NCBI GenBank assembly: GCA_964613305.1
Contig: CAZTII010000001.1
Coordinates: forward strand, 11,990-75,989
Source of the DNA: an uncultured Erysipelotrichaceae bacterium
Lineage (GTDB): Bacteria; Bacillota_I; Bacilli_A; Erysipelotrichales; Erysipelotrichaceae
DNA length: 64,000 nt
Direction of reading: 5' to 3'
A model generated the notes under the pieces. The model ran no database searches and was not told the origin of the DNA. It saw nothing but the letters and a program-made list of their open reading frames with translations. Positions 4,074 through 62,451 of this stretch are shown here, one piece after another. The translations under genes were made by a program, and so were the position numbers. Every line of letters begins with the position of its first letter. The stretch's first letter is position 1.

Positions 4074-5594
4074 TTGCAGTGGCTTAAAAATAGTGGCCTT
4101 GAACAAATTATTATTGATTCAATTAAGTCGGTTTTGCCGGTTTATATAATCATTACATTACTGTCGATAGCGTTTATACCGTTATCAAGTCATGTGTATT
4201 TTACATTGCACATTGGAACGTTATTTGTTGTTGCCGGACTAGTCTTTTTTTCTTTAGGAACGGATAGCGCGATGACACCAATCGGTGAAGGTATTGGTAG
4301 TTTGATTGCTCATAGCGATAAAAAATGGTTTATTGTTCTAGTATCGCTTATCATTGGTTTTTCTTGTGCACTAGCAGAACCAAATATTATTTTATTGACG
4401 AAACAGTTTCCTAGTTTGGATAGTAAAATGTTAGTGTTTTTAATTTCAAGTGCAGTTGGTATCTTTGTGATGATTGCGGTTGTAAGAATTTATTTAAAGA
4501 TTAAACTACGTACGATATTTTTGGTTTGTTACACAATGATTATGGTGCTTGCTTTATTAGTAGAACCGCACTTTTTATCGGCAGCTCTAGATTCTGGAGG
4601 AGTTATTACAGGTCCAGTGGTCGTTCCGTTTTTAATGGCAATTGGCGTTGGTTTGTCAAAAAATCGTAGCGATGATGATGCTGAAGATGATGTATTTGGT
4701 TTTGTTGGTTTAAGTGCGTTAGGACCAATGTTATCGGTATTGATTGTTGGTGTAATTGCAAAACCTAAACAAGCACCGATTGACATGTTTACACTTCAAC
4801 ATGGTGATAATACAAAACAATTATTTTCTTTCTTTTATCAGGCAATACCGCAGTACGGTAAAGAAATTGCGAGTGCTTTGTTGCCGTTGTGTATTTTCTT
4901 TGCTTTGTTTCAATGCAGTAAACAGCGTTTTGATAAGGAGAGAATGATGCAAGTGTGGGTTGGTTTATTGTATACTTGGATTGGTTTAGTTCTTTTTCTA
5001 TGTGGTGTGTATGTAGGGTATATGCCAGTTGGTCATCAAGTTGGAATGCAGATTGGGTTAAGCAATCACGCATGGTTAATGATTCCAATCGGGATGCTGC
5101 TTGCTTATTTTATTGTTCTTGCCGAACCGGGTGTATATGTGCTAAACAAACAAGTATCGACAGTAACTGCTGATGCGATTCCAAAATCGGTATTGTCACT
5201 TTGTTTGTCGCTAGGGATAAGCATATCCATTGGATTGGCTTTATTGCGTATTATGTTTGATATTCCTTTATTAGTAATTATATTGCCGATTTTAATTGTT
5301 TCATTGATACTCAGTTTTTTTGTTCCACCACTGTTTACAGCGATTGCTTTTGATTCTGGAGGTGTTGCTTCAGGACCGATGAGTGCAGCATTCTTAATGC
5401 CATTAGCGATGGGTTTTTGTAGCTCGTTTAATAAAGACATCGCTACCTTTGCATTTGGATTAGTTGCCTTAGTTGCGATAGCACCTCTTGCAACCATTCA
5501 AGTTGTCGGCTTTATTGTTTCTATGAAGCAAAAGAAAATACATGAAAGTAAAAAAGTAGAGGAGGAAATAATATACTGTGGTCACTCTGAATAA
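4074..5594 (+). CDS. Polytopic membrane protein with two internal repeats, DUF1538-like
   Basis: The repeated motif DSGGVITGPVVVPFLMAIGVG / DSGGVASGPMSAAFLMPLAMG occurs once in each half, with many TM helices. An in-frame TTG at 4074 sits 6 nt after GGAGGTG; the track start is ATG 4059. The family name is from memory. Confidence 0.7.
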   Translation: MQWLKNSGLEQIIIDSIKSVLPVYIIITLLSIAFIPLSSHVYFTLHIGTLFVVAGLVFFSLGTDSAMTPIGEGIGSLIAHSDKKWFIVLVSLIIGFSCALAEPNIILLTKQFPSLDSKMLVFLISSAVGIFVMIAVVRIYLKIKLRTIFLVCYTMIMVLALLVEPHFLSAALDSGGVITGPVVVPFLMAIGVGLSKNRSDDDAEDDVFGFVGLSALGPMLSVLIVGVIAKPKQAPIDMFTLQHGDNTKQLFSFFYQAIPQYGKEIASALLPLCIFFALFQCSKQRFDKERMMQVWVGLLYTWIGLVLFLCGVYVGYMPVGHQVGMQIGLSNHAWLMIPIGMLLAYFIVLAEPGVYVLNKQVSTVTADAIPKSVLSLCLSLGISISIGLALLRIMFDIPLLVIILPILIVSLILSFFVPPLFTAIAFDSGGVASGPMSAAFLMPLAMGFCSSFNKDIATFAFGLVALVAIAPLATIQVVGFIVSMKQKKIHESKKVEEEIIYCGHSE

Positions 5595-56042: not shown

Positions 56043-57265
56043 TACTAGAATATATTAAGTTATCACTAAATGAACTTTTTAACAACAAACTACGATCATT
56101 TCTCTCACTGATTGGTATCGTTATTGGTGTTGCGGTAGTATTTATTATTTTTTCTATCAGTGATATTGCAAATGTGGCGATTACAAATCAGATTACTGGT
56201 AATAATGGAGCAATAAACATTAATTATGTAAAAGATAGAAAAAATGCAGAAGAAATTTTAAGTCAATCGTTTGGATCCAATTTTGGAATGTCTAGTTCAA
56301 AAACATTTTATTATAGCTTAGCGGATTTGGATGTACTAAGGAAGGTCGAGGGTGTTAGTGATGCTATGGCCAATTATACAGCACAGGCCCAAGGCGTACT
56401 TGACCGTAAGAAATTTTCCGTTACCGTTAAAAAAAATACTGACAATTTTATTGATTTCTTTGGTCATAAAGTGTTAAATGGAAAATTATTTTCTGAATAT
56501 AACAGCAAAGAAAGAGTTAACTTAGCAATTGTATCAGAAAAGTTTGTTGAAAATACTTTAAAAATTAAAAATGAAGAAGCAATTGGTAAAACAATTAACA
56601 TTAAAAATAGAGTATTTACTATTGTAGGTGTTATTGATTCGCCAATGAAAGCAAATGCAAGTTTTGTATTATTACCAACAGAAGCATATGAATTGATGTT
56701 TAGTGATTCAACAATTGGTTTTTTATCGGTTAAAATAGCACCAGGATCTGATTTAAAAAAGACATCAACGAATGCTGTTATTGAGTTAAATAAAGCACAT
56801 AATTATATCGATACTAAAAATGGTTATGTGTTAGAAGATTTAAGTTTTATCACCAATCAAATTAAACAGATGACTGGAATACTATCGATTGTTATGGGTA
56901 TTATTGCCTCTATTTCACTTCTTGTAGCTGGTATTGGTGTAATGAATATTATGCTTGTAAGTGTTGTGGAAAGAACAAAAGAGATAGGTGTAAAACGAGC
57001 GATAGGAGCTAGTAAGGGAGCTATTCAATTTCAGTTTATGATTGAATCGTGTTTATTAACACTGTTGGGCGGTGTATTTGGCGTAGTCATCGGTATGGGT
57101 GTTATTCAGTTAGCATTAATCTTATTAAAGATGCAGTTACCAATCAATATAGGATATGTAGTATTTTCGTTAGTATTCTCTTTATCTCTTGGATTATTAT
57201 TTGGCTATTTACCATCCAAACGAGCAGCAAATTTAAATATTATCGAAGCAATACAAAGTGAATAA
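56039..57265 (+). CDS. FtsX/MacB-type ABC permease
   Basis: TM1, a large extracytoplasmic domain, then three C-terminal TM helices with VERTKEIGVKRAIGASK. Confidence 0.85.
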   Translation: MILEYIKLSLNELFNNKLRSFLSLIGIVIGVAVVFIIFSISDIANVAITNQITGNNGAININYVKDRKNAEEILSQSFGSNFGMSSSKTFYYSLADLDVLRKVEGVSDAMANYTAQAQGVLDRKKFSVTVKKNTDNFIDFFGHKVLNGKLFSEYNSKERVNLAIVSEKFVENTLKIKNEEAIGKTINIKNRVFTIVGVIDSPMKANASFVLLPTEAYELMFSDSTIGFLSVKIAPGSDLKKTSTNAVIELNKAHNYIDTKNGYVLEDLSFITNQIKQMTGILSIVMGIIASISLLVAGIGVMNIMLVSVVERTKEIGVKRAIGASKGAIQFQFMIESCLLTLLGGVFGVVIGMGVIQLALILLKMQLPINIGYVVFSLVFSLSLGLLFGYLPSKRAANLNIIEAIQSE

Positions 57266-57267
57266 TT

Positions 57268-57298
57268 AAAAAAAGGATGCGAAATTTTGCATCCTTTC
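57268..57298. terminator. Bidirectional terminator
   Basis: AAAGGATGC GAAATTTT GCATCCTTT flanked by A and T runs, between convergent genes. Confidence 0.75.
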
Positions 57299-57818
57299 AA
57301 TTTAGAGCAAGTGTACCTATCGTATCGGGAGTAGTACTTGATTTAAATGATAAAACTGTAACTTTACTTTCAAGTACGTTATACGTATAGCCTTTACCAA
57401 CTTTACAGCTATTGTTATCATTAACCCCGTTATCGCATAATGTGATAGTGTAATCTGAAAGTCCTCCTTGAGCATTTGTTACATAATTTATAATGACGTT
57501 ATTTAATAAATCACCTATTTTATAATCCATCGTTTTATCAATGGTATTAAATTCTTTTATAAATTTGTCAGATTCTCCACTATCTAAGGAAGCTTGTGCA
57601 CTACTATATAGTAAATTTATGTTATCACCAACCATATCAAGTTTATCGAGGGTAATATCTGTAACCATTCTGATTTGTTTAAGATTTCTAAGAGCTACAG
57701 TTTCTTTCGCTTTAGCGGTGTAGCCAATAATACTTGGAACTATGATTAGGGCTAGCACAGCTAAAATAGAAATGACGATGATTAATTCTACTAAGGTAAA
57801 TCCTAATTTTTTTCTCAT
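57297..57818 (-). CDS. Type IV pilin / ComGC-like pseudopilin (prepilin N-terminal methylation domain)
   Basis: MRKKLG|FTLVELIIVISILAVLALIIVPS is a class III signal peptide with the E+5 residue. A C-terminal Cys pair (LCDNGVNDNNSC) resembles the pilin D-region. Confidence 0.82.
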   Translation of the reverse strand: MRKKLGFTLVELIIVISILAVLALIIVPSIIGYTAKAKETVALRNLKQIRMVTDITLDKLDMVGDNINLLYSSAQASLDSGESDKFIKEFNTIDKTMDYKIGDLLNNVIINYVTNAQGGLSDYTITLCDNGVNDNNSCKVGKGYTYNVLESKVTVLSFKSSTTPDTIGTLALN

Positions 57819-57838
57819 AGTTTCCTCCGTATTTGCAC

Positions 57839-59212
57839 CTATATGTGCAATAAGAAATGAGCAATATTGAAGTAGACGATAAGGGAAATAGCATCTACAA
57901 TTGTTGTGATAAATGGTGCTGACATTACTGCAGGGTCAAAACCAATTTTCTTAGAGATAAGTGGTAAAGTACCTCCTACAAGTTTTGCAACGATGACAGT
58001 AATTAACAATGTTAAGTTTACAGTTAATGAAACGATAAGCGATACTTTATCAAAGAAGAGTAATTTGAAGAAGTTGGCAATAGCAAGCGTAATACCGCAT
58101 ACAATGGCAACTTGGAATTCTTTGAAAATAACTTTAAAGATATCACTATATTCAATCTCTCCTAATGATAACCCACGAATTAGTGTAACAGAGGCTTGTG
58201 AGCCACTATTTCCACCAGTATCCATCAACATTGGAATATAAGCTACAAGCACTACTTGCGTTGCGAGAGCATTTTCAAATTTAGATATAATTAAACCAGT
58301 AAAGGTAGCTGAAACCATTAAAAATAGTAACCATGGAATTCTGGCTTTCCAAATTTCAAAAACATTCATTTTAAGATATTCTTTGTCACTTGAAATAACA
58401 GCTCCCATTTTTTCAATGTCTTCAGCGTGTTCTTCTTTTATGACTTCAATAGCGTCATCTACAGTGATGATACCGACTAGGCGACTTTCTAAATCGACTA
58501 CTGGTAGTGCCATAAAACCGTATTTACTAAATACTTCTGCGACTATTTCTTGATCATCGGTAGTTTGGACAGAGATAACATTCTCTTCCATGATATCTTC
58601 TATTTTATCCTTATAATCAGCTAATAACAAGTCCTTGACAGAACAAAGACCAATTAATTTTCTTTTTTCATCGATAACATAACAAGTATATACGGTTTCT
58701 TTGTGTAGTCCAATGCGTCTAATTCGTTTAAAGGCATCCTCAACTGTCATATTCTTTTTGAAATCAATATATTCAATTGTCATAATGCTTCCAGCACTGT
58801 TCTCAGGGTAATTTAAGAGCTGATTAATAATAACTCTTGTTTCAGCACTGACATTTTTAAGAATGCGTTTTACGACGAATGCTGGCATTTCTTCAATGAT
58901 ATCAACAGTGTCATCTAAATATAAATCATTGATAACATCACGTAACTCAGTATCGTTAAAACCATTAATTAAACTCTCTTGCATTTCAAAACTCATTTCA
59001 ACAAAGGTATCTGATGCCATATCTTTAGGAAGGATTCTAAACAGAAACATCAATTCTTCGTGATTAATAGATTTATTATCCCATAATTCTTCAAATGCTT
59101 CAGCGATATCTGTCGCATTTTTATTTGCTAAACAATCATGTAATTCTTTTCTTTTTTTATTTTTTAAATAGGTACATATTAACTCTTCAAGTTGATGTAG
59201 TTCTTCAGCCAT
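57839..59212 (-). CDS. mgtE: Magnesium transporter MgtE
   Basis: N-domain, tandem CBS domains, and a C-terminal 5-TM domain with PMLMDTGGNSGSQ. ATG 59212 behind GGAGGTTAACC. Confidence 0.9.
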   Translation of the reverse strand: MAEELHQLEELICTYLKNKKRKELHDCLANKNATDIAEAFEELWDNKSINHEELMFLFRILPKDMASDTFVEMSFEMQESLINGFNDTELRDVINDLYLDDTVDIIEEMPAFVVKRILKNVSAETRVIINQLLNYPENSAGSIMTIEYIDFKKNMTVEDAFKRIRRIGLHKETVYTCYVIDEKRKLIGLCSVKDLLLADYKDKIEDIMEENVISVQTTDDQEIVAEVFSKYGFMALPVVDLESRLVGIITVDDAIEVIKEEHAEDIEKMGAVISSDKEYLKMNVFEIWKARIPWLLFLMVSATFTGLIISKFENALATQVVLVAYIPMLMDTGGNSGSQASVTLIRGLSLGEIEYSDIFKVIFKEFQVAIVCGITLAIANFFKLLFFDKVSLIVSLTVNLTLLITVIVAKLVGGTLPLISKKIGFDPAVMSAPFITTIVDAISLIVYFNIAHFLLHI

Positions 59213-59248
59213 GGTTAACCTCCTATAATGTGAATTCCTCACTTTTAA

Positions 59249-59257
59249 ATTATACCA
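59249..59257 (-). promoter_or_regulatory. Extended -10 promoter element of mgtE
   Basis: Minus strand TGGTATAAT, about 36 nt upstream of the mgtE ATG. There is no good -35. Confidence 0.45.
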
Positions 59258-59430
59258 TAAATATTTTTTTAAAAATAGGTCTATTATTATCTATACAATG
59301 AGGTATTATATAGATGTAAAAAGAAACATACGAGGTGATTCAAATGAAAAAGGTGTTACTAGAATATCTACACTAGTCTATATGGAAGGGCAGAATTTCA
59401 TATAGACGGCAAAAAAAATAATATGAAAGT

Positions 59431-59472
59431 GAAAGTCTGCATGAGGGCATACCAATGGACAATGAAAGTATA
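59431..59472 (+). repeat. Motif copy 1 (GAAAG-N5-ATG...ATACCAATGGACAATGAAAGTATA)
   Basis: GAAAGTCTGCATGAGGGCATACCAATGGACAATGAAAGTATA. The last 24 nt are identical to copy 2. Confidence 0.8.
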
Positions 59473-59538
59473 GGGATTCAATAAACTAATCATTAAAGCA
59501 AATGATAAATGCAATGACGATTGATTAGTTAAAGTGAC

Positions 59539-59555
59539 GTATGTTGAGAAATATA
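59539..59555 (+). repeat. 17-nt box, copy 1
   Basis: GTATGTTGAGAAATATA is identical to 59727-59743. It is itself related to the GTATGTTTAGGATATA core of the main motif. Confidence 0.75.
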
Positions 59556-59598
59556 TAGTGTTAAATGGTAGTCATAAGAATGTCGAATATAGTGAATG

Positions 59599-59640
59599 GA
59601 AAGGTATGTTTAGGATATACCAATGGACAATGAAAGTATA
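59599..59640 (+). repeat. Motif copy 2
   Basis: GAAAGGTATGTTTAGGATATACCAATGGACAATGAAAGTATA. Confidence 0.85.
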
Positions 59641-59726
59641 ATATATCAATAAAAGCTAATCATTTAGGCAAATAACAACAAAATAAGTATTATAAATGTG
59701 ATTAGTTTGATAGTTATTATGGTAGT

Positions 59727-59743
59727 GTATGTTGAGAAATATA
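59727..59743 (+). repeat. 17-nt box, copy 2
   Basis: GTATGTTGAGAAATATA. Confidence 0.75.
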
Positions 59744-59790
59744 CGACGTTGATTATAAGGTTTGAGTTTTAATCAATAAATAATTGAATG

Positions 59791-59817
59791 GAAAGGTATG
59801 TTTAGGATATACCAATG
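59791..59817 (+). repeat. Motif copy 3 (5' part only)
   Basis: GAAAGGTATGTTTAGGATATACCAATG is identical to copy 2 over 27 nt (plus the shared upstream GAATG), then diverges. Confidence 0.85.
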
Positions 59818-59876
59818 AATAGTTTATAAAGCAGTGATGTTTAAAGGTCAGTGAAGTAAATCAAAACTAAGTAGCA

Positions 59877-59903
59877 GAAAGGCATGTTAAGGATACACCA
59901 ATA
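59877..59903 (+). repeat. Motif copy 4 (diverged, 5' part only)
   Basis: GAAAGGCATGTTAAGGATACACCAATA has 4 substitutions relative to copy 3. Confidence 0.7.
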
Positions 59904-60133
59904 GATGGTACATGAAGTATTAGTTGTTAACTATAATTAATAGTATACATGGTTAATAAATAATTTAATGGTATAAAGTAGCTATACTAGTGTAGATTGA
60001 GTATTAATCGAATAATGAATGTATTGAATTATGTAAGTATCGAAATAAGTAGTTATCTTAACAAAAGTATCAAGTTATTTAATAATTGATTAAAAAAGTG
60101 TTAAAACAACACAAAAGAAGCTGGCTTACTAAG

Positions 60134-60209
60134 AAAATTTAAAAAAGGCCTCTAACATATCATCGATTCACAATAGCTAAGTGAAGATGGTGATATGGAA
60201 GAGGTCTTT
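60134..60209 (-). terminator. Long imperfect hairpin plus U-run, terminator of the degenerate ATPase gene
   Basis: Minus strand: AAAGACCTCT...(inner CATATCA/TGATATG pairing)...AGAGGCCTTTTTT. The plus-strand reading is also hairpin + TTTT. Confidence 0.6.
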
Positions 60210-60210
60210 T

Positions 60211-62451
60211 CTATGACTGTTGAATGTATGAAATAGAGCATCCTAAACTTTCAAATAAGTTTTTAATTTTGTTTATTTCATAGATCGATGATGTTTCTAC
60301 AAGTATTGTCGTATCATCAATAAATGATACATGAAATCCATCGATTGATATGGTTTTATTTAATCTATCTTTTAGATGAATCGTATAAAAATAGCGCTTA
60401 GTATTAATATTTTTTAAAGGTAATACTGACTTCCATAATAAAAGATATGATAATAATGAAATAGACATGATGAGTAGTGGCGAAAAGTTAATAAAAGGAA
60501 GAATAGAAATAATGATTAAGCATACTTGAGTGTATAATGTTCTTTTTTTTATTTGTATCATTTCTTGTTGAAATTGTTCTGTTAATGAAAAACATGAAGT
60601 TAGAAATGAAATGTCATTGTTTAAAACAAATAGTGGTGCTTTTTTTGGTAAAAATGATGGTCCACAATTTAAAACTATCGTATGTTGATTATCAATGAAA
60701 CCTTGGTTGATAAATAACATTTTTTTATGATTGTTTTCACAATATTCAATCATTTTAATTTCTTTGGTTAATGTCATATCGAATTCAATAAAGTCCATGT
60801 TACATGGTTTTAAGTAACGCTTTGCTTTTTCATCGTTATTTACTAGACAAGCACATATTTCTTTTTGATGCTTTTTTAGCGTTGATATCGTTGCTTTTAC
60901 GGTAGGTAAGATAGTTTCTTCGATAGCTATAATCCCTAAAACCTCCATGTTATTTAACACTAAGCGACACATTTTTCCTTCTGAATGATATGATGATATT
61001 GTATTTTGAACAGTATATGGCAGAGTATTATTATCAATATCGTCGCTATTAACTATCGTGGATGATTGAAAATAAGTTGCTTCTTTTTTAAATAAGTTTT
61101 TAAAGCTATCATTATTGACTTGTTGAAAAGCGGTTTCTTTTAAATATTGCATTACCGCAAGAGATGTAGGAGTTTTGGATTTACTTTCTAGGGTGTGCAA
61201 CAAGACAGAAAATTCGTTTAAATCCATCTGACTTGAAATCATTACATCGCTAACACGCGGTGTTTTATCGCATAAAACGTTGTCTTTATAAAAGGCAAAG
61301 ATATCTGTATCTTTAAGTTGTAATACTTGATTAAAACTATCAAAGAATATCATTTGTTGATTAGCTCGATGGGATAAGAAGGTACTAATTAGTTCTTTAG
61401 CGAAAAGGTAGAGATCACCAACATAAGCGACTAGAAAGCTAATGATGGTAATCGCGGCGCTTGATATATTTTTTGTTACTATATAATTTAGTAGTCCAAT
61501 AAAAATGGAAGAAACGCCATATAATAATGGAATTCTATTTAATAAAGTTTCCTCGGTAGTTACTGTTGTTGATAAAAAAGTTGAGTCGATATGCTGTTGT
61601 AATTGATGATAGAATGACTCATCATATTTTTTATCAACTCTAATTTCAATTGGTGCGTGTAAATTAGTGGAAAGAGCGAATACTTGGCTGTTTACAGATG
61701 CCTGTTGTGGATATTTATTTCCAAGTAAGAACAATGTATCGATAAAAGTAAATCCTTTTGTAATTGTTCCATCTAGTGGAATTATACAGTTTTTATCGAT
61801 TAAAATGATATCGCCGACATTAATTGTTGAAATATCGACGTCAATAGAAGTGTGGTTTTTAACTAATTTACATTTTTTTGGTTGTTTTAAATTATACCGA
61901 TAGTGTATTAACGATATTTTCTGTTTGAATAATGTGAATATATAGCTTTTACATGTACTTAAATGGATAATAATAATTGGATGAAAAAATAAATGATGTT
62001 GATTAATATTGATTGCTAAACTTAGGAAAATACTTATAAATAGTAGTGTTTCACTAGTGAATTTTTTAAATTGCAGTTGGTCAATAAGAATATCTTTCAT
62101 AAAATAGATATTGGTAAAGAATAGTAAGAGTTGTATTAAGTTTACTATTAGTGTAGGTAATTGTAAAAATGAGATGCTTGTAATGGTAATCAATGACATT
62201 AAACCGATTAATAACTGTCGTTTTAGTGATAATGATTGTTTATTTGAGTTGAAATTAAAACATTTATACGATGATACTAAAATGGTTAGTGATGATAGTG
62301 ATAAAACACGTTCATCAAATTCAACTAGAAATGTAAAAGTGCATTGTTGGTACTCACAACGTAGAACACCAGGGATAGAATGTATGGTTGCAAGCAGTTT
62401 TTCAGCATTTATCGGATTTAAAGGATGATTACAAGGAAATTTATAACGCAT
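60211..62451 (-). CDS. CopA-like P1B-ATPase homolog lacking all catalytic motifs (predicted pseudo-ATPase membrane protein)
   Basis: Intact 746-aa ORF behind GGAGTGAT. It aligns by eye to the window's own CopA through the actuator, P and N domains, but TGES, CPC, DKTGT, HP, TGD and GDGxNDxP are all replaced (details in findings). Confidence 0.75.
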   Translation of the reverse strand: MRYKFPCNHPLNPINAEKLLATIHSIPGVLRCEYQQCTFTFLVEFDERVLSLSSLTILVSSYKCFNFNSNKQSLSLKRQLLIGLMSLITITSISFLQLPTLIVNLIQLLLFFTNIYFMKDILIDQLQFKKFTSETLLFISIFLSLAININQHHLFFHPIIIIHLSTCKSYIFTLFKQKISLIHYRYNLKQPKKCKLVKNHTSIDVDISTINVGDIILIDKNCIIPLDGTITKGFTFIDTLFLLGNKYPQQASVNSQVFALSTNLHAPIEIRVDKKYDESFYHQLQQHIDSTFLSTTVTTEETLLNRIPLLYGVSSIFIGLLNYIVTKNISSAAITIISFLVAYVGDLYLFAKELISTFLSHRANQQMIFFDSFNQVLQLKDTDIFAFYKDNVLCDKTPRVSDVMISSQMDLNEFSVLLHTLESKSKTPTSLAVMQYLKETAFQQVNNDSFKNLFKKEATYFQSSTIVNSDDIDNNTLPYTVQNTISSYHSEGKMCRLVLNNMEVLGIIAIEETILPTVKATISTLKKHQKEICACLVNNDEKAKRYLKPCNMDFIEFDMTLTKEIKMIEYCENNHKKMLFINQGFIDNQHTIVLNCGPSFLPKKAPLFVLNNDISFLTSCFSLTEQFQQEMIQIKKRTLYTQVCLIIISILPFINFSPLLIMSISLLSYLLLWKSVLPLKNINTKRYFYTIHLKDRLNKTISIDGFHVSFIDDTTILVETSSIYEINKIKNLFESLGCSISYIQQS

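Follow-up and report, generated by a model that had tools for sequence, protein, structure and literature searches.

The 64,000-nt stretch of DNA analyzed here (the window), from an uncultured Erysipelotrichaceae bacterium, contains a spacer of about 1 kb whose plus strand encodes a member of a previously undescribed family of structured RNAs. The spacer is nominally free of open reading frames (ORFs) and lies between mgtE on one side and a gene for a P-type-ATPase homolog on the other, both on the minus strand. An initial annotation had described four copies of a short motif in this spacer and had read them as related micro-ORFs; we found that the motif is the core of the RNA family. Our best reading, to which we give a probability of roughly 60%, is that the four motifs represent the conserved core of one regulatory RNA, repeated in tandem and more decayed with each copy, and that the locus would specify a single regulatory RNA of ~0.9 kb with an amplified core module.

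The four motif copies are real and are found only at this locus. Re-translation of the plus strand reproduced the four micro-ORFs and the motif copies at the coordinates first reported (Table 1), and each copy has GAAAG(G) a few nucleotides 5' of the ATG. The 27-mer GAAAGGTATGTTTAGGATATACCAATG occurs twice exactly, compared to 0.00 expected occurrences in 100 shuffles. Positions 59593-59625 and 59785-59817 are 100% identical over 33 nt, and copy 4 is 73% identical to that stretch. A degenerate pattern (GAAAG..GYATG..AGGRYAYACCAAT) had four matches on the plus strand and none on the minus strand, and the same pattern read backwards, as a control, had none. A search of the rest of the genome, as the initial annotation had proposed, found the motif at this locus only in the 1,874,685-bp assembly (32.8% G+C).

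The copies lie within larger, diverged tandem units that are 66-72% identical over 66-189 nt (69% over 189 nt for units 1 and 2, 72% over 95 nt for units 2 and 3, and 71% over 66 nt for units 3 and 4). Because the units have diverged to this extent, they are old duplications and not an artefact of assembly. Inside units that are otherwise 69-72% identical there are identical runs of 24 and 33 nt, which point to constraint or gene conversion acting on the core.

The core is part of an element that was found at more than 60 loci in gut and rumen Erysipelotrichaceae. A strict pattern derived from the window had no match in 400 genomes of the family, viral contigs, and metagenomes. A degenerate-motif scan of species-representative genomes gave one meaningful match, in the Erysipelotrichaceae metagenome-assembled genome SIG229; over 37 nt, this match has 92% identity to copy 1, and the base composition of its genome is quite different. 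The canonical AGAC version of the core was learned from this single match; copies 2-4 carry lineage-specific letters. Using blastn from the SIG229 locus, we found the core of ~42 nt in 18 of 41 related genomes, mostly at 88-95% identity, and an exact-pattern scan found it on 12 metagenome contigs. A covariance model (R1) was built on 23 homologous core modules, none of them from the window; its E-values are rough, and related genomes are non-independent samples. Among 150 other genomes of the family, R1 matched 17, in 12 of 83 genera (the genus of the window included), and it matched none of 74 genomes of the sister family. Among the genomes searched, the element is confined to one family of the order, the Erysipelotrichaceae. 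Searches against Rfam 15 were negative for the window (E up to 1) and for 10 homolog loci (E up to 5 or 0.1). The core sequence and the peptide of the short frame ORF1 (see below) were both without a match in the searchable literature, and the motif was not found in 200 searchable supplement files of a survey of structured RNAs in the human microbiome.

Copy 1 is canonical, and copies 2-4 are tandem paralogs of the core and the hairpins downstream of it, with decay that increases along the array. R1 recovered the four copies in order on the plus strand with steadily falling scores, from 55.1 to 5.7 bits (Table 1). We considered, and rejected, an origin of units 2-4 by decay of whole units with ORF1 and the hairpin that follows it (P1): local alignment scores were equal to the shuffle mean. 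Since there is no significant similarity to ORF1 and P1 before cores 2-4, the duplicated unit consists of the core and its downstream hairpins.

The window contains all of the parts of the family. In the direction of the motif strand, these are a promoter, a Shine-Dalgarno sequence (SD) with ORF1, hairpin P1, a variable hairpin and an A-rich stretch, the core, more hairpins, and a terminator. The family promoter has a -10 box of the TGnTATATT type. The SD (AAGGAGGT) is strong and is often within a small hairpin; by eye, pairings of GTACC(T)...AGGAGGTAC or ATACC...GGTAT can be made out around it in homologs. The core consists of AGAAAGU(GAAAG), then a hairpin (H1; GUCUGC-AUGAGG-GCAGAC, with GAGG in the loop), then CCAAUGGAC, and its short form (AGAAAGU, the GAGG-loop hairpin, and ACCAAUGGAC) is nearly invariant. 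On the 3' side of the core are an AAYUGAAU box and three or four more hairpins, several with GNRA loops, and then a long intrinsic terminator. In homologs, as in the window, this is a long hairpin of the same kind (GGRUUCUUUUU).

Within the array of the window, the hairpin of copies 2 and 3 (GGUAUGU-UUAGG-AUAUACC) is shifted by one base, with ACCAAUGG retained. In copy 4, two mismatches lie inside the hairpin (59881-59899), and ATA (59901-59903) replaces the conserved ATG. Two hairpins lie 3' of the possible mini-ORF2 of copy 1 (see below). The 17-mer GTATGTTGAGAAATATA belongs to the duplicated unit, and its stem letters are like those of the hairpin of copies 2 and 3. Homologous RNAs are ~0.4-0.5 kb, compared to ~0.9 kb predicted in the window. 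A scan of the window found no intrinsic-terminator-like site between the copies; therefore, a single transcript of ~0.9 kb would be the simplest reading. The terminator hairpin is probably common to the RNA and the convergent gene for the ATPase homolog, which seems to use it jointly.

Table 1. Features of the spacer and its flanks (positions are those of the window; R1 E-values are rough).
Feature	Position	Strand	Description or basis
mgtE	57839-59242	-	Pfam MgtE_N, CBS, MgtE
Putative RNA gene, ~0.9 kb	59304-60212	+	aligned to promoter region/5' end of homologs; same terminator type
Putative -10 box TATTAT	59304-59309	+	predicted transcription start site ~59316; alignment with homologs
Small hairpin enclosing part of the SD of ORF1 (GAGGTG, 59332-59337)	59323-59341	+	minimum free energy (MFE) fold
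ORF1, MKKVLLEYLH*	59344-59376	+	conserved with coding signature
Hairpin P1, GTCTATATGGAA / TTTCATATAGAC, loop GGGCAGAA (59388-59395)	59376-59407	+	per-sequence folds
Core copy 1, canonical (core 59424-59460)	59413-59541	+	R1 55.1 bits, E 8e-12
Copy 1 TGAAAGTGAAAGT	59424-59436	+	
Copy 1 hairpin H1, GTCTGC-ATGAGG-GCATAC, then CCAATGGAC	59435-59452	+	
Micro-ORF of the initial annotation, copy 1	59441-59473	+	MRAYQWTMKV*
Possible mini-ORF2, copy 1	59455-59484	+	MDNESIGIQ*
17-mer GTATGTTGAGAAATATA, small hairpin	59539-59555, repeated 59727-59743	+	repeat family D10; unit 2 fold
Core copy 2	59587-59679	+	R1 20.0 bits, E 5e-4; repeat families D1, D2, D5
Copy 2 hairpin, GGTATGT-TTAGG-ATATACC	59603-59621	+	other letters, one-base register shift; ACCAATGGACAATGAAAGTATA kept
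Micro-ORF of the initial annotation, copy 2	59606-59641	+	MFRIYQWTMKV*
Mini-ORF2-like frame, copy 2	59623-59652	+	MDNESIIYQ*
Core copy 3	59774-59858	+	R1 12.9 bits, E 0.017; hairpin 59795-59813; diverged downstream
Micro-ORF of the initial annotation, copy 3	59798-59818	+	MFRIYQ*
Mini-ORF2-like frame, copy 3	59815-59829	+	MNSL*
Core copy 4, degenerate	59865-59947	+	R1 5.7 bits, E 0.65, alone not significant
Micro-ORF of the initial annotation, copy 4	59884-59904	+	MLRIHQ*
Long two-part terminator hairpin (AAAAGGCCTCT ... AGAGGTCTTTTCT)	60143-60212	+	MFE fold
P-type-ATPase homolog, 746 residues	60211-62451	-	weak Pfam E1-E2_ATPase and Hydrolase matches only
M24 peptidase gene	62567 onward	+	beyond the ATPase homolog

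The element is a structured RNA that is read from the plus strand. In the two hairpins 3' of the core, 13 pairs had two-sided changes, a number that was reached in 0 of 500 shuffles, and 82.6% of the cells were paired, compared to 31-44% when the partner was slid. We draw the conclusion about structure and strand from this covariation.

Strand-specific signals also bear on a different view of the array, in which the copies act as DNA: a regulator of mgtE might bind them, or they might be left over from a mobile element. Direct repeats in a long AT-rich spacer, beside an mgtE gene that has no M-box, and a 15-nt inverted repeat around the array would fit this view. However, the covarying helices contain G-U pairs, ORF1 is led by an SD, and the terminator has a U-tract, all of which belong to one strand; the element also occurs at loci without mgtE, the genome contains it only once, no transposase is nearby, and the bracketing inverted repeat is not above chance. 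We find repeats acting at the DNA level hardly credible. The inverted repeat itself is 93% complementary and connects the end of ORF1 with a site ~600 nt downstream (59366-59380/59983-59997), thus bracketing the array. As a helix that might close the RNA it was rejected: its complementarity was at chance level once G-U pairs were allowed, and homologs had none.

Covariation indicates that the loop of P1 pairs with the 5' arm of H1, and that this pairing and H1 exclude each other. Every homolog examined folds a P1 hairpin at the same place, with stem sequences that are many and different. P1 begins 6-8 nt after codon 8 of ORF1, and its loop holds the conserved UGCAGAA. In the window, the first base of P1 is the last base of the ORF1 stop codon, and the loop GCAGA is complementary to UCUGC in the 5' arm of the core. 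A MAFFT alignment of 24 diverse 5' modules put the 3' arms of P1 out of register, so that RNAalifold predicted no pairs from it; P1 therefore rests on per-sequence folds and the canonical subset.

We aligned loops and arms by anchoring on the invariant AG of the P1 loop and the invariant CU of the 5' arm of H1. In this register the P1 loop UGCAGA is complementary to the arm UCUGCA, and variant loops have matching variant arms (GUAGA/UCUAC, ACAGAA/UUCUGU, ACAGCA/UGCUGU, CCAGA/UCUGG, and GGCAGA/UCUGCC). In the resulting alignment (A2), 83.5% of the loop-arm cells were paired, compared to 21-41% when slid. Five of the seven pairs, two of the seven being fixed by the anchors, had two-sided changes, with 13 such cells compared to 3.2 +/- 1.4 in shuffled alignments (0 of 500 reached 13).

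The 5' arm of H1 also pairs with its own 3' arm. H1 was 88% paired, with one position that is G-C, G-U, or A-U. In one lineage (loci L046, L050, L052, and L063) the three partners have changed jointly: C to U in the loop, G to A in the 5' arm, and C to U in the 3' arm. Because both pairings use the same 5' arm, only one of them can form at a time; such exclusion is the signature of a switch. A further helix, CAGA/UCUG between the 3' arm of H1 and the end of mini-ORF2, was rejected since it showed no covariation.

The substitution pattern of ORF1 indicates that it is coding and under selection at the level of amino acids. Its consensus is M-K-(K/E/R)-(V/I)-L-L-(E/N)-(Y/F/I) followed by 0-2 more codons and a stop (8-10 codons), and it was present in all 26 of the first homologs and in most of the later ones. 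In 40 distinct sequences, entropy summed by codon position was 4.87, 1.78, and 7.33 for positions 1, 2, and 3, respectively. Leu5 was kept in 40 of 40 through six synonymous codons, and Val/Ile4 likewise used six codons. ORF1 has no run of regulatory codons. At six loci (L022, L026, L028, L035, L036, and L044) two tandem ORF1 modules, for example MKEVLLNYR* and then MKEILLEIH*, each with its own strong SD, precede a single core.

The ATG and the supposed SD of the four micro-ORFs are letters conserved at the level of RNA and are not parts of a gene. The case for translation of the four copies into peptides of 6-11 residues (MxRx(Y/H)Q...) is that all four frames are open, that a purine-rich stretch lies 5' of each, that the peptides are alike, and that an ATG is at the same place in 26 of 42 distinct homologous units. 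In the other 16 units the motif is kept and its neighboring letters are invariant, but AAG, CTG, CAG, GAG, or the stop codon TAG stands in place of the ATG; the invariant letters are GAGG, not ATGAGG. Homologous loci that keep the nucleotide motif and break the frames are what the initial annotation had listed as refuting the peptides. With ORF1 as the positive control, the entropy by codon position was 2.64, 1.94, and 1.31, so that the third position is the least variable, the opposite of a coding pattern. The codons GAC, CAA, and TGG had no synonymous variants, and the lengths of the homologous peptides scatter (8, 12, 13, and 15 residues). At locus L027, an A-to-C change removes the ATG and compensates for a U-to-G change in the P1 loop, so the position serves pairing of the RNA. 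Finally, the distance from GAAAG to the ATG is very short, and GAAAG(G) is part of the AGAAAGU box, which has at most one mismatch in all collected units. We consider translation of these frames very improbable.

A different short frame, the possible mini-ORF2, starts at an AUG that is invariant among homologs. All 41 units place the loop GAGG of H1 8 nt 5' of the AUG in CCAAUGG. Of 44 distinct units, 32 have a frame of exactly 5 codons and another six have one of 6 codons; the usual reading is M-D-x-x-x. Frames of this kind are present in copies 1-3 of the window (Table 1); in copy 4 the AUG has changed to AUA.

The position of ORF1 relative to the two pairings suggests how the RNA might work. 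A ribosome finishing ORF1 would melt the base of P1. Melting of P1 would shift the balance between the pseudoknot of the P1 loop and H1, both of which need the 5' arm of H1, and with this shift the loop GAGG, and the invariant AUG 8 nt 3' of it, would become exposed or hidden. An exposed AUG would open the mini-ORF, 5 codons long in most homologs. The RNA would then be a translation-coupled switch, and this genome would carry extra output modules on one transcript of ~0.9 kb. We hold this proposal tentatively, at somewhat less than even odds; its geometry and its pairings come from the comparisons described above, and the effect of the ribosome and the final output are our extrapolation. A more specific proposal is more doubtful. 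ORF1 (MKKVLLEY) may be a sensor of ribosome arrest or occupancy in a free-standing RNA, toggling the pseudoknot against H1 and gating the 5-codon mini-ORF, which we regard as possible but speculative. The element would then be a stand-alone sensor of the state of translation, not tied to one downstream gene, whose sensing and output modules can be multiplied (three [ORF1 + core] units in one genus, and one ORF1 with four cores here).

Several observations weigh against a single regulatory RNA with an amplified core and against its working as a switch. The promoter in the window is weak by consensus, was missed by a promoter scan, and was assigned by alignment only. A P1-like loop to match is lacking in copies 2-4, which may be mere decaying duplicates without a role. 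Anchoring on AG and CU fixes two of the seven loop-arm pairs by construction, and H1 itself covaries little, with one A-U exchange and G-U intermediates. A 4-bp hairpin (UGGA/UCUG; 93% paired, with some covariation) explains the fixed length of mini-ORF2 equally well, and the second codon of mini-ORF2, GAC, has no synonymous variant; translation of mini-ORF2 is therefore only a possibility. The downstream gene is convergent in ~13 of ~45 loci, including the window, and no single regulated target is evident.

The number of cores differs between genomes (1, 3, or 4), and most members of the family have a single core. At one locus in another genus (L059; G113:C37 1-700), three complete units of ORF1, P1, and core are repeated with a period of 194 nt and are followed by one terminator. 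We also compared the array with ToxI-like repeats of type III antitoxins, and dropped this candidate: the units are 86-192 nt and diverged, and the spacer contains no toxN-like ORF.

Variation in copy number is also what might be seen if the RNA were a multi-site decoy, in which core hairpins present GAGG or AGGA to an RNA-binding protein or to the 30S subunit and additional copies raise the capacity. The initial annotation had offered such a hairpin as an alternative to the peptides. Its anatomy held up: the AGG or GAGG loop is family-wide, in a stem paired to the extent given above, a G-C to A-U exchange has occurred in the H1 stem in one lineage, and copies 2 and 3 have rebuilt the stem with other letters. 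The analogy to GGA sponges of the CsrA type did not, since CsrA (PF02599) was not found in this genome (95.6% complete) or in four of five other carriers, with positive controls; Hfq was not found in this genome either. A decoy would fit the repeated hairpins with an AGG loop, the nearly invariant letters of the core, as in a binding site, and the fact that the RNA stands alone at many loci. Yet the core is single in most members, the adjacent genes do not consistently encode a partner protein, and the covariation of loop and arm favors an intramolecular switch. We therefore think a decoy distinctly unlikely. The carrier of the L059 locus is the only one of the searched carriers with CsrA genes, of which it has two.

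The genes around the element look like a case of conserved synteny with occasional use as a leader. On the left, a divergent NudC-like NUDIX gene is present in 16 loci. On the right, 10 loci have an M24 (Creatinase_N) peptidase gene on the same strand, 8 loci from different genomes (the window, L025, L026, L028, L034, L036, L037, and L046) have the convergent ATPase homolog, and the remaining loci have a GH78, GH1, amidohydrolase, or other gene. The terminator is followed by a same-strand gene in ~70% of loci and not in ~30%, the window, where the next gene is convergent, being among the latter. The ~30% of loci that are convergent argue against a purely cis-acting element.

These contexts have to be weighed against a reading of the element as a cis-acting leader, a leader-peptide attenuator or riboswitch, that was orphaned in the window by the ATPase-homolog gene lying before the M24 gene, with copies 2-4 as junk. 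The 10 loci with a terminator-ended element just 5' of a same-strand M24 gene speak for it, as do the loci with the element before GH78, GH1, and amidohydrolase genes, the three units before lipoprotein-like genes in one genome (G135), the M24 gene that is present beyond the ATPase homolog in the window, and the combination of a short ORF, alternative pairings, and a terminator. However, ORF1 and the core are fully conserved at the 8 loci with the same convergent ATPase homolog, which are among the ~13 of ~45 that are convergent; moreover, the downstream genes have no common pathway, ORF1 lacks regulatory codons in a run, and the terminator is 150-300 nt from either mini-ORF. Such an orphaned cis-acting leader is, we believe, unlikely, if somewhat less so than a decoy.

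The clearest case of a 5' leader is in G135 (contig C3, ~91.4-95.1 kb; L066, L067, and L061), in which at least three units are present in 4 kb. These are short versions with ORF1, P1, and core and without the long 3' domain, each followed after ~70-240 nt by a gene whose product is lipoprotein-like or secreted and has no Pfam match. The G135 core and copy 1 of the window both carry the GGGCATACC variant.

Other features of the flanking genes were apparent. Only ~100 nt separate mgtE from the divergent putative promoter of the RNA, and the true start of mgtE is likely the ATG at 59211-59213, with a GGAGG SD, and not the GTG from the ORF finder. Directly downstream of mgtE, on the minus strand (57297-57818), is a gene whose 173-residue product carries a prepilin N-terminal methylation motif (PF07963), and no further pilus genes are near it in the stretch examined. 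At L018 (= L008, the SIG229 locus, 4204-4260), aligned with L020-L031, the strand of the divergent NudC-like gene has a conserved UUUGUUGGG box, then a G+C-rich hairpin and a U7 run. This terminator-like hairpin and U7 run in the nudC 5' leader are directly before the SD and ATG, and could be an attenuator of that gene's own.

Based on these results, we believe that a doubtful call of micro-peptides can be replaced by a testable RNA family with more than 60 loci and without an Rfam model or a trace in the literature. The family has features that are rarely combined: an 8-codon ORF selected at the level of amino acids, a loop-helix pairing supported by covariation, a competing hairpin with an SD-like GAGG, a possible 5-codon mini-ORF, and modules that vary in number. 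For annotation, an apparently empty spacer of ~1 kb beside mgtE becomes a predicted RNA gene. If the switch model is true, the element would be a new bacterial readout of translation status by a free-standing RNA, and a compact model for the duplication and decay of modules in a regulatory RNA.

The element differs from the known systems that it most resembles. The M-box (ykoK) Mg2+ riboswitch is the usual leader of mgtE in Firmicutes, and the element is like it in being a long structured spacer next to mgtE. Unlike the M-box, it is on the strand opposite to mgtE and directed away from it, and it occurs elsewhere without mgtE; with an E-value limit of 1, both strands of positions 57000-62000 were without an Rfam M-box match (RF00380). 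The element is like CsrB/CsrC, RsmX/Y/Z, and CrcZ in its repeated hairpins, its purine (A/G)GG(A) loops, and its variable number of repeats. It is unlike them in that CsrA was not found in this genome or in most other carriers searched, there is mostly one core, Rfam gave no match, and an arm of the hairpin takes part in a long-range pairing. Compared with the GGA-sponge motif, the loops in the window are AUGAGG in copy 1 and UUAGG, with the next A in the stem, in copies 2 and 3.

The closest likenesses are to leader-peptide sensors and to dual-function small RNAs (sRNAs). Leader-peptide sensors (ermC/ermB, cat86/cmlA, ToiL-topAI, MgtL-mgtA, and the trp/leu/ilvB attenuators) share with the element a very short, SD-led ORF with a conserved peptide, a hairpin at the stop codon of that ORF, mutually exclusive pairings, a second SD and AUG that can be hidden, and a terminator at the end. 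In contrast to them, the element has no consistent regulated gene on its 3' side, is convergent to its neighbor in ~30% of loci, and lacks the run of regulatory codons; it is also much longer (0.4-0.9 kb), with further covarying hairpins, and its modules are duplicated in some genomes. Dual-function sRNAs (RNAIII/hld, SR1/SR1P, SgrS/SgrT, and Pel/sagA) differ from it in the size of the encoded peptide, 26-43 residues or more compared to 8-10 codons for ORF1. No base-pairing seed or target was found for the element, complements of its invariant stretches being at chance level in the genome and not at start sites (a weak test), and Hfq, as noted, was not found. With these sRNAs the predicted RNA shares a free-standing, terminator-ended form with multiple hairpins and a small conserved ORF. 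Its putative -10 box and its terminator are conserved in alignments, and the gene contexts vary among loci.

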